Shown one piece after another: positions 1,085 through 18,707 of a stretch of DNA of 22,938 nucleotides. Made by a program: the position numbers and the translations under genes. Positions within the stretch are counted from its first letter, which is position 1. Each line of letters opens with the position of its first letter. Source of the DNA: Promethearchaeota archaeon (GTDB lineage: Archaea; Asgardarchaeota; Lokiarchaeia; Sigyniarchaeales; SOKP01); assembly GCA_008080735.1 (NCBI GenBank), contig SHMW01000070.1, positions 1 to 22,938 of the forward strand, read 5' to 3'. The notes under the pieces are model-generated. The model was not told the origin of the DNA. It saw only the letters and a program-made list of their open reading frames with translations, and did not search any database.

Positions 1085-2371
1085 ATGACACGAGAAGAAC
1101 CTCTTCTTTTTACGACCTATCCCGAGCTTAAGGAAACTGTTCCATGGATTCCCTTGTTAACGGGTATTCCCACTCCAATTGATAGACTAGAAAATCTTGA
1201 AATTAACTTGGAATTAAACTCGGAAGGGCGTATTTATATTAAACGAGACGATATCGCACATCATATCTATGGTGGAAATAAACTTCGTAAGTTTGAATTC
1301 ATTTTCGGAAAGGCCATCGATAATAAAAAAACGGGAATGATCACCATTGGCGGCATTGGTTCAAATCACTGCTTGGCTTGCGCGATCGTTGCTAAGGAAC
1401 TAAACATGCGATGTGATCTTTTTTTATTTCCACAACCGCTTACGTGGCATGTACAGCGTTCTCTGTTACTTTACAACCATTTTGGGGCTAACCTACATTT
1501 TAGCAATTCCTTTATAACTTTAGCACTTAAAGTTTTAGGATTCAGACTTACCCATCCAAAATCTCATCTGATGTTCCCTGGAGGAAGTCTCTTGTTTGGT
1601 TTAGGCTCTCCAATCGGAACATTGGGATTTGTAAATGCGGTTTTTGAACTTAAAACTCAAATTGACGCGGGGGTAATAGATGAACCTGATGCGATATTCG
1701 TTGCTGGTGGTTCGGGAGGGACTGCAGCTGGTTTGGTTCTGGGTTGTAAGCTCTTAGGATTAATAACTAAGGTGCATATAACCGCAGTAAGTATGGATTG
1801 GATCATAAATAAGTCTAACGTTATAAAAAACGCCTCGAAAGCGCTTAAATATCTGAGAGAACACAACGACTTCGTGCCGGATATCGCTATTCAAGAAAAT
1901 GATTTTGAAATTATTGAAGGCTATCTTGGTTCAGACTATGGAGTGAAAACCGAACGAGGGCAGAGAGCGATAGATCTAGTGATGGAATTAGAAGGGAATT
2001 CTTCAGGGTTTATCTTGGAAACTACTTATACTGGCAAAGCTATGGCCGCAATGATTGATTATTGTAGCCAAGGAGAGAATAAGTCTAAAAAAGTTCTCTT
2101 CTGGAACACTTATAACTCAAATGATTTGGATCAATATTTAAACCAAACCGATTTGAATTATAAATCACTCCCCAAACGATTTCATAGGTTTTACGAAAAT
2201 AATACCTTTCAATGCTGGCAAATAAAGGATTGTCCAGAAAAAGAACAATGTCCCGCATACCTAAATCATGAGTACCGATGTTGGAGAGTAAAGAACTGTT
2301 CCGAGCAAGATCGCAAGAATTGTAAAGCTTATCGGGAATTAAGACATAATATTCATCTAGAAAACGCCTAA
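1085..2371 (+). CDS. PLP-dependent D-cysteine desulfhydrase/ACC deaminase-family enzyme with C-terminal Cys-rich two-CW domain
   Basis: PTPI...IYIKRDD...GGNKLRK (PLP Lys), SNH, GSGGTAAG phosphate loop, LETTYTGKA. C-terminal CWQIKDC...CPAY...CWRVKNC...CKAY extension. Confidence 0.88.
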   Translation: MTREEPLLFTTYPELKETVPWIPLLTGIPTPIDRLENLEINLELNSEGRIYIKRDDIAHHIYGGNKLRKFEFIFGKAIDNKKTGMITIGGIGSNHCLACAIVAKELNMRCDLFLFPQPLTWHVQRSLLLYNHFGANLHFSNSFITLALKVLGFRLTHPKSHLMFPGGSLLFGLGSPIGTLGFVNAVFELKTQIDAGVIDEPDAIFVAGGSGGTAAGLVLGCKLLGLITKVHITAVSMDWIINKSNVIKNASKALKYLREHNDFVPDIAIQENDFEIIEGYLGSDYGVKTERGQRAIDLVMELEGNSSGFILETTYTGKAMAAMIDYCSQGENKSKKVLFWNTYNSNDLDQYLNQTDLNYKSLPKRFHRFYENNTFQCWQIKDCPEKEQCPAYLNHEYRCWRVKNCSEQDRKNCKAYRELRHNIHLENA

Positions 2372-2511: not shown

Positions 2512-2817
2512 ATGGCAAAAAAAAAGAAAGCAGATGAAGAGGAGGACCTCCCAAAAGGTAAAGTGGATGAGGAAGGCGACGAAATTATTGATTTAGATGA
2601 GTGGGATGACAACCTCGATGAAGATGTGTATGAAGACTTGAGCGAGATCGAGGATGATATGCTTACCGATGAGACCGAAGATGAGGAATTCGGTCCCGAA
2701 GTTGACGAGGTCGAAAAAATGCTGCGAAAAATTAAATGTGATCCGTGCCCCGGATTATCGAGTAAGCCTGGATGTCAAGTTGCAAAAGATTTTGGCTGTC
2801 CCAAACCCAATAAATAA
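2512..2817 (+). CDS. Small highly acidic, probably disordered protein with C-terminal CX2CX8CX7C metal-binding motif
   Basis: ATG start. Basic MAKKKK head, long Asp/Glu tract, C-terminal CDPCPGLSSKPGCQVAKDFGC. Purine-rich coding-like composition. Confidence 0.75.
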   Translation: MAKKKKADEEEDLPKGKVDEEGDEIIDLDEWDDNLDEDVYEDLSEIEDDMLTDETEDEEFGPEVDEVEKMLRKIKCDPCPGLSSKPGCQVAKDFGCPKPNK

Positions 2818-2967: not shown

Positions 2968-3975
2968 TTGCTAAAAGATATTTTAAAGCGATTTTTAGTT
3001 ATAGTTGTTGGAATTTCCATAAGTGCTTATATTTGGCACATCAATAGAAATATTTTTGGAAACACTATTGATACTTGTCTTATCCTTTCAACGATGGTAT
3101 TTCTGATTACCTATATCCCCTTTGAGGCTTATTTTTCAGTACGAAAAATTTGGTATGATAGATGGAGTAAATTGGATGTAGAAAATGTAAGGAGAGAAAA
3201 AATAAAAATTCCAATAGATAAAGAATCGAAGGTTGGAAATCATACACAATTAATAGCAAATATTGTTCAGAGCTCTGATAAATCAAGAGTCAAACAGAAA
3301 AAAGCGATGATTATTATAAACCACGGCTATTCTGATACCAAGGAAACATTGGAATATATCTATCTTCCTTTGGCGATTCAAGGATACGTGATTCTGGCTT
3401 ATGATGCACGTGGTACTGGCGAGTCCAAGAAAGTGGGAAGGCGGAATCAATTAAAAAAGAGGATAGACGATTATCAGAAGATAATACAATGGATAAAACA
3501 ACAAAATGAGTTTCAGACATATAAAATAATCTCTCTTGGATTCAGTATTGGAGCAATTATTTCCCTTTCTGCCAGTTTTGATGATCATACCATTGAGAAA
3601 ATAATCGCAATTTCGTGCATCTCCCACTATAAAGAAAATGTAATGCGCTTTAATCCCCTTGTTCTTTTGAGTTATATAATACGAGGAATTCCATTATTTC
3701 CCGATCAAGCCACAGTGAGGAACCTTTCTCCCTATCTTATTTTTAAAAAACAAAAAGAGAACTTAGAGGCAAAAAATTATGAGAAATTATGCGAAAGGAT
3801 CTATATAATCCATGCAGAGAATGATAAGGTCATAAAATTTAGGAATTTCAGAGAAAATCGCTCTATCTTAAACTTGCCTAAAAAAAATCAATTAGTCTTT
3901 AAAAAAGGCGGACATACAATGAAAAAGAATGAATTGGCGCTGGTCGCGGGTATTATCCGATTCTTGGAGGACTAA
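2968..3975 (+). CDS. Membrane-anchored alpha/beta hydrolase (serine hydrolase)
   Basis: Two N-terminal hydrophobic helices. HGY oxyanion motif, YDARGTGES, GFSIG nucleophile elbow, HAENDKVI acid residue, GGH catalytic His. TTG start. Confidence 0.85.
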   Translation: MLKDILKRFLVIVVGISISAYIWHINRNIFGNTIDTCLILSTMVFLITYIPFEAYFSVRKIWYDRWSKLDVENVRREKIKIPIDKESKVGNHTQLIANIVQSSDKSRVKQKKAMIIINHGYSDTKETLEYIYLPLAIQGYVILAYDARGTGESKKVGRRNQLKKRIDDYQKIIQWIKQQNEFQTYKIISLGFSIGAIISLSASFDDHTIEKIIAISCISHYKENVMRFNPLVLLSYIIRGIPLFPDQATVRNLSPYLIFKKQKENLEAKNYEKLCERIYIIHAENDKVIKFRNFRENRSILNLPKKNQLVFKKGGHTMKKNELALVAGIIRFLED

Positions 3976-5135
3976 ATCATTGTTAACATTTCTTTAATGG
4001 ATTCTTTTGCTAGTGTTATATTTTTATTCATATCATCGAGCTTGGTTTTAAAATAGTCAGGTTGGGATTGAGATTTCCTGATCTCTTTAAAAATGTTAAA
4101 AAATTGTTTTTTAGACTCGAGCTCCATCGAATATACACGCTTACGAGAGGTTGCGTCACTCATTATAACAAAACATCCATGTTGGACAAAACTATGATCA
4201 AATGATGGGAAGTAGGTTTCCCATACAGTATCAGAAAGATTTTCATATACCTTTTGAGCTAGATTTTCACAGAATTCCTTGCTCTTTGTGCTATAACAAA
4301 AATAGAAGGGCAGTCTATCTTGATTTTCGTTAAGATATTGCTCCAATTTCTCGTATATTAAATCGACCTGCCGTATTGTCATATTTATATGATCATGATC
4401 GGCCGAAGGATTACATTTCGTAAATAAGGGTCTTCGATAATAGGGAATATCATAAAGTTTCATTATGTTTAGAATAATACCTTCTTTTAGCCAATGATCA
4501 AATTTATACGTGATTGATTTTTTCTTGAAATTCTTAACAAGATCGCGTGGAAAACGTTCAAGCAGTGAAGTTTCATGAAAATCCAACAAATAGATTGAAA
4601 TATCTGGATTATCCCAATATGGTTGCAAAACTTCTTTTACATATTTCGCATGATCCGGCAGAGGATTTCCATTAGCATCTCCCTTACTAAAGGGCGATTC
4701 GGGCGCAAATGTCCTTCTCCAATATCGATTTAAATTTGTACCATTTTTTAGATAATACCCTGATTTGTTTTCTTTCTTTGGATGGATAAAGCCATACGGA
4801 TTCATTAGCGGGAAAAAAATAATCTCCTGATCTAATTTCATAATGCCCTTCGAGTTGGTTCCATCCTTAGTTATTTGGTCTAAATACTCTAATATTCCAA
4901 AGAGACCATTATATTCATTATGTTGAGCAGCGATGAATACCTTAAGATATTTTACATCATTTACATTACCATTATAACTCACTTTCAGACTCGGGACTAT
5001 TCCTTCACTAGTTTTACATTGATCGTATTCAATAAAATCCCATTCAGCAAACTCCTTCAAGTTTGAGAGAATTTGATTGAAGAGTTCTTGCCTGTGAGAT
5101 ATATCTAATAATAATTTTAAAGTTTCATGATCCAT
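3972..5135 (-). CDS. M14-family zinc carboxypeptidase / AstE-AspA-like amidohydrolase
   Basis: FIAAQHNE (first Zn ligands), FPLMNPYG, NGTNLNRYW, LLDFHET (third Zn ligand), and YSMELES (candidate catalytic Glu). Confidence 0.8.
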   Translation of the reverse strand: MDHETLKLLLDISHRQELFNQILSNLKEFAEWDFIEYDQCKTSEGIVPSLKVSYNGNVNDVKYLKVFIAAQHNEYNGLFGILEYLDQITKDGTNSKGIMKLDQEIIFFPLMNPYGFIHPKKENKSGYYLKNGTNLNRYWRRTFAPESPFSKGDANGNPLPDHAKYVKEVLQPYWDNPDISIYLLDFHETSLLERFPRDLVKNFKKKSITYKFDHWLKEGIILNIMKLYDIPYYRRPLFTKCNPSADHDHINMTIRQVDLIYEKLEQYLNENQDRLPFYFCYSTKSKEFCENLAQKVYENLSDTVWETYFPSFDHSFVQHGCFVIMSDATSRKRVYSMELESKKQFFNIFKEIRKSQSQPDYFKTKLDDMNKNITLAKESIKEMLTMI

Positions 5136-6594
5136 TTTTTTCAGGCCCTATAATTTTTTCCCAATTCGCGAAATCTACTATCTTTTGATAATTTTCAGCG
5201 ATACTTTTAAAAATAATACATGAATTACAAAACAGCTCAATAAAATGATCTAAATTCAACCCTAAAAGTCTTGCGGCTTTAGGAGAAAAACCTAAGCCTC
5301 TATCGACCTCAATACGGCCATCAAAACCACTTAGGTTGACTACAAATTCCTCTTTGTTTAATCCACTAATAAAACTTCCACGAGCTATTCGTGCCAAACC
5401 TCCTACAGGTATCAGCTTTCCATCGATTTGAGATAAATATATACGTATATCAAAGGTGTGCTTTCCCTCCCTCCAATCTATTAGAGAGAATTTGGCCATT
5501 TCCTGAATTGTATATGGATATGGATTTCTGGTTTTCATGAATTTTGCATAATATTCTTTTTTACTCTCTTCAATAATCTTTTTAATTTTTTTCTCATCCT
5601 TTTTAACATCTTCAGGAAATATCGACATCACCCCAGCACCTCCAGATCCTCCATGGGGTTTAATGATAAATGGCCTATTGTAGGTATTCACAGCTAGCTT
5701 CATTTTCTCCGCCAGCTCTTCATCATTAGATGCCTTCGTAAATAGAAAGGTCGCATTTTGGTATTTTTCTAACTTATCATTCACCAAATGCTTTGCAAGG
5801 TAAGAGAGAGATTTATCATCCGTAATTAAGTATACTGGATTTACGATTATTGTATTTAATTTCTCAAAATTTTCGGTAATGATATACTGGAAATCATCAT
5901 CGCGTAATCGTCGAGCAATTCCATCTCCAATCAATACCTGGACGTTGATGTTATTGAATTTAACCCAATAGTTATTATATGACACCCTGTCCGATAACTG
6001 CTTATAATCTGCAATAATAAACCTAACATCATCCGATGTTTCTTTGGAAAAATCAGCAACACTATAAATGCCTACTTTAAAATTCTTTTTCTGAAGATTC
6101 TCTCTTAAGTATGAAATTAATATCGCTTTCTCGTGGATTAGTCCGTCATTAACGGGTACTCCAACTAAGATTGTAATCGTGGAATCTTTATTGTATTCTT
6201 TTTTTAAGGCTAAATTAATCGCTTCCATATATCCGTTGTAAATTAGCTTCTGTTGTTTTGGGGTTAATATCGAAAGTCCTCTTGAACTCCCTCCATTTGC
6301 TTCTAACAAAAAATAGGTGGGTTTCCCTTCATTATTCTCCGCAATCATAAAATCAATACTTCCAACGAAAAATACCTCTTTATGTTGGATCTTGTGTTCA
6401 TTATATTGATTTAATAAATTCAGCGATTTTTTACGTGCTTCATCAGTAAATCCATCATCTTGAGATTCTCTCAATCTTTTAAAAGAGACTAAATCTAATC
6501 CTAATGATTTACCTAATTTAACAAGTTCCATATCTGATGCGCTTCCAGACTTTCGCAAAAAATCCACGAATTTTACTAGATTTTGCTCGCTCAT
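5125..6594 (-). CDS. Circularly permuted ATP-grasp amide/peptide ligase
   Basis: The metal-binding segment IDFMI...FLLEANG is N-terminal. VNP...DDKSL, FIIKPHGGSGGAGV, YTIQE, FDIRIY, VGGLARIA and FVVNLS follow, which is the permuted motif order. Confidence 0.8.
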   Translation of the reverse strand: MSEQNLVKFVDFLRKSGSASDMELVKLGKSLGLDLVSFKRLRESQDDGFTDEARKKSLNLLNQYNEHKIQHKEVFFVGSIDFMIAENNEGKPTYFLLEANGGSSRGLSILTPKQQKLIYNGYMEAINLALKKEYNKDSTITILVGVPVNDGLIHEKAILISYLRENLQKKNFKVGIYSVADFSKETSDDVRFIIADYKQLSDRVSYNNYWVKFNNINVQVLIGDGIARRLRDDDFQYIITENFEKLNTIIVNPVYLITDDKSLSYLAKHLVNDKLEKYQNATFLFTKASNDEELAEKMKLAVNTYNRPFIIKPHGGSGGAGVMSIFPEDVKKDEKKIKKIIEESKKEYYAKFMKTRNPYPYTIQEMAKFSLIDWREGKHTFDIRIYLSQIDGKLIPVGGLARIARGSFISGLNKEEFVVNLSGFDGRIEVDRGLGFSPKAARLLGLNLDHFIELFCNSCIIFKSIAENYQKIVDFANWEKIIGPEKNGS

Positions 6595-6706
6595 CCTAAT
6601 ATTAAAAATCGGTTTGTATTAATATCAATCAATATTTGACTTTTTAATTAAATGCTTCGGATTTAGGATATAAAACATTAAAGAAAGGTATCAGAATGAA
6701 AAAGGG

Positions 6707-7939
6707 TTATAGATACAAATAACCTTGGTGATTTCCTTTCGTACTTAGCCGGAGACTCCCTACCAAAACCTTATCTATTTTCAATTGTTCTTTATAGCTT
6801 AAGTCAGAAAATAGTAATATGTAGTCCTTCTCTATATTTATCGAAAATAGTAGCCCAATCTTAATGATTTTAGAATTCTCGTCTAAAAGGGCAATAAGGA
6901 CATAATGATAGGGAAGCTTTATCAATTCTTCAGTATTTAGTACTTCCTCCTCGATTCTATTTTCCTCCTTGTTAAATTGATATTTAAGAAATTCGATGTC
7001 GTCAAGATCGATAGTTATTTTCCTATAGTCTTGAAGAACCTTAGAAAATTGGCTCTGACGAAGAAACCTCCGTTCATCCTTACTTTTTTCATAATAAAAT
7101 TCGTTTTCTTTCTCTATAAGATGTAATTTGGACTTTTTTTTCGCATCTTTTTCGATTTCTTTGAGTTCGTCTATTTCTTTATCATGGAAGATAACAATTG
7201 TGTCTGGCTTAACCGTTTCAATAAAAAACTTTTTATAAATAACGCCTGCTTCCGTTTTTATCCATCCGTCAGTATCTATCAGAATAAAATCAGTATCTTC
7301 GAACTTTTCAATGTAATTATTTATCATATTTCTGCACGCATGGGACACTATAAATTTGAGGTTACCTTTCGGAAAAGTCGCTCCGATGAATGTAGTATAA
7401 TCTGGGGATATGTCTTCCCCGGAAATGATAGATTTTTCAATTTCTCCAATACTTATTGTAGTTGGGAGATACATTATTTGCTGTCCTAAATCAGAATCCA
7501 AATATCCTCCTTTATAACCCGCATGAAGGAGTTTATTAGCGAGATATTTAATGAGCGTGGTTTTTCCTCGACTCAATCCTAATACCATTATTTTTAAATA
7601 TTCGCCCTCTTTCTTTTTCTTGATTTGGTTCAAAATAGAATCCTTGATATCTCTCCATTCTTCTGGAATGGAATTCTCTTCAATTTCCTCCAGATTCTCA
7701 TCCGGGTTATTGGTATAGATCTCCAATTCTACATCTTCAGTCCCATAGAGCGGGTATTGCTTGGCATCAGGAACTATCAGAACATTTTCCTCTTCTAATT
7801 TATCCAAGTCGGTTATAGATTCGCTTTGATCTCCGGAGATTGTTTTTCCGAAGATTTCTATTGTTCCTTTCACAATATTTACTCTGGTGGGACCTTTAAC
7901 TAAGAGAGTGTGTCCCTCTTTCAATTCTTTATTAATCAT
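6707..7939 (-). CDS. Clp1/Nol9/Grc3-family polynucleotide 5'-hydroxyl kinase
   Basis: N-terminal beta domain (TLLVKGP...GTIEIFG), P-loop GLSRGKTT, DSDLGQ, IDTDGW, and RRFLR lid. Confidence 0.85.
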   Translation of the reverse strand: MINKELKEGHTLLVKGPTRVNIVKGTIEIFGKTISGDQSESITDLDKLEEENVLIVPDAKQYPLYGTEDVELEIYTNNPDENLEEIEENSIPEEWRDIKDSILNQIKKKKEGEYLKIMVLGLSRGKTTLIKYLANKLLHAGYKGGYLDSDLGQQIMYLPTTISIGEIEKSIISGEDISPDYTTFIGATFPKGNLKFIVSHACRNMINNYIEKFEDTDFILIDTDGWIKTEAGVIYKKFFIETVKPDTIVIFHDKEIDELKEIEKDAKKKSKLHLIEKENEFYYEKSKDERRFLRQSQFSKVLQDYRKITIDLDDIEFLKYQFNKEENRIEEEVLNTEELIKLPYHYVLIALLDENSKIIKIGLLFSINIEKDYILLFSDLSYKEQLKIDKVLVGSLRLSTKGNHQGYLYL

Positions 7940-18401: not shown

Positions 18402-18707
18402 TTAAGCTCTTTTCTGTAAAGTCATTTTAATAAAATCTTCTGGCATCATACTTGCTTTCTTGATTTCATCAATAGTCCACCCTTGATTATGCAATCGTAA
18501 TATCACCGCCTCCATTGTTTCACTAATTTCGATTATATGATCATCTGGGTCATAAATCCGAAATCCTCGTTGTCCCCAGGCGTGCTCAATAATAGGATGG
18601 ATTATTTTAACCTCTCTCTCAGTAATGGTTTCAAATAATTTATCTAAATTATCAAATTCAAAATATAGAGAGACATGTAATAATTGGTGAGGTTGATCCA
18701 GTATCAA
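18402..18707 (-). pseudogene. N-terminally truncated glyoxalase/VOC family gene
   Basis: C-terminal half is recognisable (LYFE..., HPIIEHAWGQRGFRIYDPDDHIIEISE, plus helical tail). The first beta-alpha-beta3 module is absent and there is an in-frame stop shortly upstream. Confidence 0.65.

Follow-up and report, generated by a model that had tools for sequence, protein, structure and literature searches.

What do two overlapping genes, one for an ATP-grasp ligase and one for a carboxypeptidase-like protein, do in the genome of a Lokiarchaeial archaeon? The genes lie on the minus strand of contig SHMW01000070.1 of the Promethearchaeota archaeon assembly GCA_008080735.1. The stretch analysed, 22,938 nt in forward-strand numbering, is called the window in the following. 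Its DNA is archaeal, with a GC content of ~33%, and nearly all homologues of its genes come from metagenome-assembled genomes of Promethearchaeota (Asgard archaea of the Loki type). An earlier interpretation made without database searches (the sequence-only reading) had proposed that the pair adds and removes amino-acid tags, as an analogue of the tubulin-modifying TTLL ligases and CCP carboxypeptidases. We hold, with slightly better than even confidence, that the two proteins are make-and-break enzymes for one amide bond, and that a small metabolite is the most likely substrate of both.

All ligase motifs quoted in the sequence-only reading are present, namely D81...E98-A-N100, T258-D-D-K261, K312-P-H-G-G-S-G-G-A-G321, D382-I-R384, G398-G-L-A-R-I-A404, and V418-V-N420. 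With few exceptions, these residues do not vary among 41 homologues of 52–91% identity (alignment A1), which share about 100 invariant positions, and the catalytic residues remain unchanged as far out as bacterial relatives at 15–21% identity. The fold and the residues K312-P...G321, D81, E98, and N100 place the protein among the ATP-grasp enzymes. The Mg-binding E98-x-N100 segment stands N-terminal to the Gly-rich loop at K312, which is the order of the permuted class. A Foldseek search with the AlphaFold2 (AF2) model of the ligase, which has a predicted local distance difference test score (pLDDT) of 84.5 and a predicted template modelling score of 0.90, returned eukaryotic glutathione synthetases first (E 1.6e-12). 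The next matches were 3k1t, 3n6x, YjfC/YgiC, glutathionylspermidine (GspS) and trypanothione synthetases, and the fungal Cp1B. VIA-align ranked 3k1t best (Z 15.0, 330 residues, model residues 55–473) and gave Z 12.5–13.5 for the glutathione synthetases over residues 20–440, whereas the unpermuted LysX/ArgX, Ddl, TTL, and TTLL6 reached Z 10–12.3. The permutation is real because permuted ligases align with the model end to end (from residue 20 or 55 to 440 or 473) and unpermuted ones only with residues ~140–470. Judged by its model, the ligase is a genuine circularly permuted ATP-grasp enzyme, and this part of the sequence-only reading stands. The nearest folds are those of small-molecule amide ligases. 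All characterised folds of the same topology belong to small-molecule ligases, among them Cp1B, the fungal ligase of E-64 biosynthesis (PMC12568646).

The family affiliation of the ligase was less clear than its fold. A Pfam/NCBIfam scan gave sub-threshold ATP-grasp matches only, including YheCD (E 2.5e-5, residues 297–420) and a C-terminal match of the Cj0069 family (residues 68–106). None of the Pfam models reached its threshold in 39 members of the ligase family, and the weak matches were scattered over ATPgrasp_ST, YheCD, GSH-S_ATP, TTL (four members), and CP_ATPgrasp_2 (two members). The assignment to the type-2 circularly permuted ATP-grasp proteins could not be maintained: the gathering threshold of PF14403 was missed, the two weak matches among the 39 members had a best E of 0.0018, and CP_ATPgrasp_2 (PF14403), CP_ATPgrasp_1, GshA (PF08886), and GSH_synth_ATP did not match the ligase itself (P0002) at E <= 0.1. 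Membership in TTL/TTLL (PF03133) failed as well, with sub-threshold matches in 4 of the 39 members, a permuted order of segments, and a TTL alignment (Z 10.7) that covers only part of the model. A comparison of the ligase profile with PDB sequences produced chance-level matches only. The ligase belongs to a small family (107 clusters in a profile search of 1.84 billion representative proteins), which has no Pfam model and no characterised member. A fused ligase–hydrolase form was not found among the 107 clusters.

The best structural match, 3k1t, is a "putative gamma-glutamylcysteine synthetase" of Methylobacillus flagellatus and presumably represents Pfam PF08886 (GshA). It has the same permuted order of ATP-grasp segments as the ligase, but the two proteins are only 14% identical, PF08886 does not match the ligase, the gene context differs, and 3k1t is itself uncharacterised. 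Eukaryotic-type glutathione and homoglutathione synthetases (2hgs, 8fbz, 1m0w, 3kal, 5oes) are likewise permuted and carry the E-x-N segment near the N-terminus. They differ from the ligase in sequence (12–15% identity, no GSH_synth match) and lack a hydrolase partner such as the ligase has.

The partner protein, termed the hydrolase here, was modelled with a pLDDT of 89.8. The AF2 model superposes on carboxypeptidase A4 with a VIA Z of 21.8 and a root-mean-square deviation of 3.0 Å over 253 residues (carboxypeptidase residues 9–306), so that the protein is predicted to adopt the M14 carboxypeptidase A-type alpha/beta fold. The M14 fold named in the sequence-only reading was thereby corroborated. 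No particular affinity to M14D/CCP emerged: the M14 subfamilies tied at Z 20.4–21.8, with 20.5–20.7 for the bacterial CCP-like structures 3l2n, 4a37, and 4b6z versus 20.4–21.8 for M14A/B. At the sequence level, the hydrolase remained below the Pfam gathering thresholds of both PF00246 (14.3 vs. 21.6 bits, E 0.03) and AstE_AspA_cat, PF24827 (13.5 vs. 25 bits, E 0.05), and its profile matched no PDB sequence even at E 10. An hhalign comparison of the hydrolase alignment (A2) with 15 PF24827-positive proteins encoded next to distant ligase homologues gave a probability of 93% and an E of 3.3e-7 over 124 columns. By this alignment, the hydrolase is homologous to the AstE/AspA-type small-molecule deacylases, its nearest sequence relatives.

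The invariant residues of the hydrolase include Q71, N73, E74, N134-L-N-R137, D185, H187, E188, and E340, and H72, kept in at least 90% of the sequences, is nearly so. A homologue of only 26% identity, from a second Lokiarchaeial family, retains all of them, H72 and E340 included; E338 is not kept. The first zinc motif, Q71-H72-N73-E74, reads H-x-E and departs from the H-x-x-E of M14 enzymes. Because hhalign pairs AQH-NEYNG of the hydrolase with GQHGNEWNG of the AstE-type partners, matching H72 to the canonical His and leaving a one-residue gap, we regard the motif as the canonical one shortened by one residue. The alternative, that Q71 represents a zinc-binding His replaced by Gln, was rejected on the same alignment. 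N134-L-N-R137 and D185-F-H187 align to the NR and DLH motifs of the AstE-type proteins, and E340 is a candidate catalytic Glu by inferred rather than aligned equivalence. The hydrolase resembles the AstE/AspA family (succinylglutamate desuccinylase, aspartoacylase; PF24827) and the M14 carboxypeptidases in its fold and, by the profile alignment, probably in the N-R pair and the second His, with E340 as a candidate for the Glu, but differs from them in the H-N-E sequence at the first motif and in an additional insertion of ~140 residues and a long C-terminal helix.

The distribution of the two genes was surveyed in Asgard genomes, whose families are labelled here f1 (the source family of Lokiarchaeia), f2 (the second Lokiarchaeial family), and f33, f22, and f19 (further Asgard families). 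Among 301 genomes, the ligase was detected in 64 of 68 f1 and one of seven f2 members and essentially nowhere else, and the hydrolase in 43 of 68 and one of seven, respectively. A broader ligase profile, applied to a sample of 400 genomes, found 120 of 134 members of f1, 2 of 14 of f2, and one of two of f33. The ligase is hence present almost throughout one Lokiarchaeial family. The sequence-only reading had suggested that the two genes are functionally coupled, and the gene neighbourhoods bear this out: in every genome with both genes on one contig (~40 in the phylum sample), they are adjacent, with the hydrolase directly downstream on the same strand, a regularity beyond chance. Adjacency within f1 proves little by itself because a whole region of ~15 kb is syntenic there (L13-S9-AroA-AroC-GFO-Mut7C-FmdE-(GNAT)-Clp1-ligase-(hydrolase)-alpha/beta-hydrolase-acidic ORF, the last being an open reading frame). 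The pair of f2, however, stands in a different context, preceded by genes for an unknown protein of 405 aa, a pyruvoyl arginine decarboxylase, and a deoxyhypusine synthase and followed by a convergent DNA ligase gene. Furthermore, 20 of 27 metagenomic loci with distant ligase homologues (150–450 bits) have an AstE_AspA_cat gene at position –1 or +1. These neighbours match PF24827 with E 1e-17 to 1e-28, occur in both gene orders, and often overlap the ligase gene. Since the pair persists in the different context of f2 and 20 of 27 distant ligases adjoin AstE/AspA genes, we consider the coupling of ligase and zinc hydrolase to be ancient. The M14-like protein of f1 is, by sequence, a divergent descendant of the ancient AstE/AspA-type partner. 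Our literature search yielded no publication that joins Asgard ATP-grasp with M14 proteins or a permuted ATP-grasp enzyme with a carboxypeptidase.

The hydrolase is missing from about a third of the ligase-bearing f1 genomes. In these loci, the alpha/beta-hydrolase gene follows the ligase at a distance of 90–310 nt, and short hydrolase remnants with stop codons were recognised in three genomes (G195, G177, G132). A rapidly built maximum-likelihood tree of 46 ligases needs at least five changes to account for the absences. The ligases of the hydrolase-less genomes nevertheless retain 96–100 of the 100 family-invariant residues. Loss of the hydrolase beside a fully conserved ligase amounts to a natural experiment, which shows that the ligase product is what selection retains. 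The repeated loss suggests that the hydrolase has an accessory role in recycling, and its loss beside an intact ligase fits an optional recycling enzyme. In the one ligase-bearing f33 genome, the hydrolase is absent, and a gene for an M20/M25/M40 peptidase (L103:7189-8643, +) is convergent to the 3' end of the ligase gene; it may be a non-homologous replacement of the hydrolase or a coincidence.

More remote members of the ligase family (E 1e-19 to 1e-4) retain the catalytic residues and are bacterial, from Planctomycetota, Methylocapsa/Methylocella/Methylocystis, Melainabacteria, and Myxococcota. No hydrolase of the A2 type was found beside the ligases of this far group, and AstE/AspA genes were present in three of its loci. 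A polytopic membrane protein follows the ligase in 26 of the 34 loci with enough downstream DNA and is recognisable as MFS_3 in one cluster. The far group also includes a protein of 602 aa from the green alga Tetrabaena socialis (P0322), which is 39% identical to P0311 and may reflect gene transfer or contamination. A link between Asgard archaea and eukaryotes through P0322 was rejected, since the protein groups with the bacterial far group. Another member, P0318, is a GPP34 fusion of 674 aa, and some bacterial loci carry tandem paralogous ligases (L055:5970-9470, L093:7767-10803, L095:3168-5971).

How would such a pair make and break an amide? The ligase would spend ATP to convert a carboxylate into an acyl-phosphate, a reaction that to our knowledge all ATP-grasp enzymes share, and join it to an amine, probably that of an amino acid. 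Its product would most likely carry a terminal amino acid whose alpha-carboxylate is free. The hydrolase would recognise this carboxylate and remove the terminal residue for turnover or recycling, a cleavage we propose in view of the kept carboxylate-binding N-x-N-R, the second zinc His, and the candidate catalytic E340. Rather than a protein, the substrate is probably a small compound, such as an N-acyl amino acid, a short peptide of the gamma-glutamyl type, or the tail of a cofactor. The folds, the conservation of the catalytic residues and of the coupling, and the repeated loss of the hydrolase beside a retained ligase are observations, and we infer a common target bond for the two enzymes, a C-terminal amino acid on the product, and a small substrate. 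The small size is favoured because of the nearest ligase folds, the descent of the hydrolase from AstE/AspA-type proteins, the linkage of the bacterial relatives to transporters, and the lack of a co-varying protein substrate. Among known systems, GspS, which together with E. coli YgiC/YjfC shares the permuted fold (Z 11–13), also couples a synthetase to a hydrolase of the same amide bond. In GspS, however, hydrolysis is the task of a fused CHAP cysteine amidase, whereas here it would fall to a separate, predicted zinc enzyme of the M14/AstE clan.

Several observations weigh against this assignment. Neither family has a characterised member, and a substrate cannot be read from similarity of fold. 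The ATP-grasp enzymes RimK, LysX, and TTL and the M14 enzymes of the CCP type act on proteins. The putative zinc hydrolase carries the ~140-residue insertion and the shortened zinc motif. A glutathione-type product is unlikely and was rejected, because a search of the source genome (93% complete) found no gamma-glutamylcysteine ligase: PF04107 gave only partial matches of ~50 residues in frames of 490–570 aa. Finally, in relatives the ligase gene often adjoins genes for RtcB-like proteins and HD or other phosphoesterases, and here it adjoins a Clp1-type kinase gene, a hint that the substrate could instead be phosphorylated or joined to nucleic acid.

ATP-grasp ligases and M14 carboxypeptidases serve as writers and erasers of protein tags elsewhere, and the pair might do the same, the ligase adding, for example, Glu to a C-terminus or to side chains and the M14-fold enzyme trimming it. 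TTLL with CCP (M14D) and RimK with RimB resemble the pair in that a hydrolase undoes the addition made by an ATP-grasp ligase. TTL and TTLL6 match the core of the ligase model (Z 10–10.7), 4 of the 39 family members show the sub-threshold TTL matches, and the large insertion of the hydrolase could serve to recognise a macromolecule. A conceivable substrate, an acidic protein with a C-terminal cluster of four Cys residues (Cys4), is encoded ~1.2 kb from the pair and is syntenic throughout f1; it was not found by the pair in f2, and its synteny in f1 is common to the whole ~15-kb region. Against a protein tag, the folds closest to the ligase are those of small-molecule ligases, TTL, TTLL, and RimK being unpermuted and matching the model partially and with lower Z. 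The nearest sequence relatives of the hydrolase are AstE/AspA deacylases, CCP-like M14D structures are no closer to it than other M14 subfamilies, the bacterial relatives of the ligase are linked to transporters, and no tubulin-related or carrier-protein gene is linked to the pair. We regard a protein tag of the TTLL/CCP or RimK/RimB kind as unlikely and did not uphold this central proposal of the sequence-only reading. The bacterial CP_ATPgrasp_1/2 systems, which Iyer et al. reportedly described in 2009 with alpha-E, transglutaminase, and Anbu, are comparable to the ligase in their permuted ATP-grasp fold (3n6x, Z 10.9). The sequence-only reading had noted that alpha-E, transglutaminase, and proteasome-like peptidase genes are missing from the window. 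Annotation scans of the window agreed, and such accessory genes were also not found in the loci related to the pair.

The two enzymes could also catalyse separate steps of one pathway, with the ligase adding a protecting or carrier group or building an intermediate from which the hydrolase later releases the product, as in LysX/LysK or AstE. AstE and LysK, pathway hydrolases of this deprotecting kind, are precedents, and the M20 peptidase of f33, where the M14-like gene is lacking, would fit as a non-homologous replacement. But the M20 neighbour occurs in one genome only, intervening pathway enzymes are not conserved beside the pair, and an essential release step should not disappear five times or more from genomes that conserve the ligase; we consider such a division of labour quite improbable. 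A substrate that is phosphorylated or linked to nucleic acid, handled jointly with an RtcB-like ligase, with phosphoesterases of the HD and other types, and in f1 also with the Clp1-type kinase, appears highly improbable to us. It is suggested by a highly conserved family of ~400 aa without Pfam match, termed A8, which adjoins the ligase in 12 of the 27 distant loci and in f33 and lies two genes upstream of it in f2. HD-domain genes recur beside A8, and in f1 the gene for the Clp1 P-loop kinase lies directly upstream of the ligase throughout. The invariant Cys, His, and PHGGGY motifs of A8 are colinear with the hallmarks of RtcB, but the assignment is weak (hhalign E 0.003–0.005, probability 7–11%, one alignment having E 0.0048 over 247 columns; Pfam RtcB matches in 3 of 10 members, E 0.036). 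Moreover, A8 has a much broader distribution than the ligase (141 of the 301 Asgard genomes) and lies on another contig of the source genome; it was rejected as a dedicated partner. The Clp1 linkage is confined to f1 and its syntenic ~15 kb, where an insert interrupts it in 3 of 20 loci; f2 and f33 do not have it. A bolder version would be an undescribed, ancient archaeal and bacterial module of three to four genes (RtcB-like enzyme, HD phosphohydrolase, ligase, and AstE/M14 hydrolase) that remodels a phosphodiester-containing, amino-acid-capped molecule or an RNA end and that was split in f1 and re-associated with the Clp1-type kinase. Its product might be such a capped molecule, for example a cofactor tail, or an amino-acid modification of an RNA end. 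We offer this module as a long shot.

With respect to eukaryogenesis, the outcome is negative. The pair is no forerunner of the tubulin-code enzymes, nothing ties it to tubulin-type tail editing, and the other Asgard families sampled are essentially without it. What the make-and-break assignment provides is a testable hypothesis for an archaeal metabolite or modification, founded on an old and repeatedly re-shuffled coupling with hydrolases of the AstE/M14 clan.

The minus-strand open reading frames of the pair and their overlap, as given in the sequence-only reading, were read directly from the sequence and are correct (Table 1). The TGA stop of the ligase occupies positions 5127-5125 and the ATG of the hydrolase positions 5135-5133. 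In other genomes, the spacing between the two genes is about –11 to +20 nt, and the exact overlap varies. Both genes are single-copy in the source genome, and 4 nt at the 3' end of the hydrolase gene are shared with the convergent alpha/beta-hydrolase gene. The spacer upstream of the ligase is the probable promoter region of the pair. A transcription start of its own is likely because 3 of 20 related loci carry an insert of 1–2.5 kb between the Clp1 gene and the ligase.

Table 1. Positions of the gene pair and of associated features (window numbering, except for the A8 family members)
Feature	Position	Strand	Basis
Permuted ATP-grasp amide ligase (P0002), 489 aa, predicted	5125..6594	-	AF2, Foldseek, VIA; about 100 invariant residues
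M14-fold / AstE-AspA-related predicted zinc amidohydrolase (P0001), 387 aa	3972..5135	-	AF2, VIA, hhalign
Overlap of ligase stop and hydrolase start, 11 nt, ATGGATCATGA	5125..5135	-	read directly
AT-rich spacer between Clp1-like kinase gene and ligase, 112 nt	6595..6706	-	read from sequence
A8 family members	G000:C96:3050-4267 (L107:1468-2712); L103:10098-11306; L051:1013-2230; L166:3097-4344

The gene for the Clp1-type P-loop polynucleotide kinase, which immediately precedes the ligase gene in the same orientation, covers positions 6707-7939 (-) and matches PF16575 with E 4e-30. The acidic Cys4 protein is encoded at 2512-2817 (+). Its 101 residues comprise a MAKKKK head, ~60 residues that are mostly Asp or Glu, and the C-terminal CxxC...C...C cluster, and its gene adjoins the alpha/beta-hydrolase gene throughout f1. 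It was set aside as a substrate or carrier, given that its synteny is limited to f1 and shared by the whole region.

A different combination was noticed in families f22 and f19, where an unpermuted YheCD/TTL/RimK-like ATP-grasp gene is overlapped by an FGase-like (N-formylglutamate amidohydrolase) gene (L105:2261-4356, -; L106:6004-9620, +); in L106, a GCS2-like ligase comes next. This is a second, unrelated ligase-plus-amidohydrolase module. Elsewhere in the window, an open reading frame of 101 aa at 18402-18707 (-) matches only the C-terminal half of Glyoxalase_2 (profile positions 60–118 of 118) and may be a truncated gene or have a mis-set start. The gene at 1085-2371 (+) encodes a PLP-dependent (PALP) enzyme of 428 aa, of which the Pfam domain match covers residues 27–341 only.

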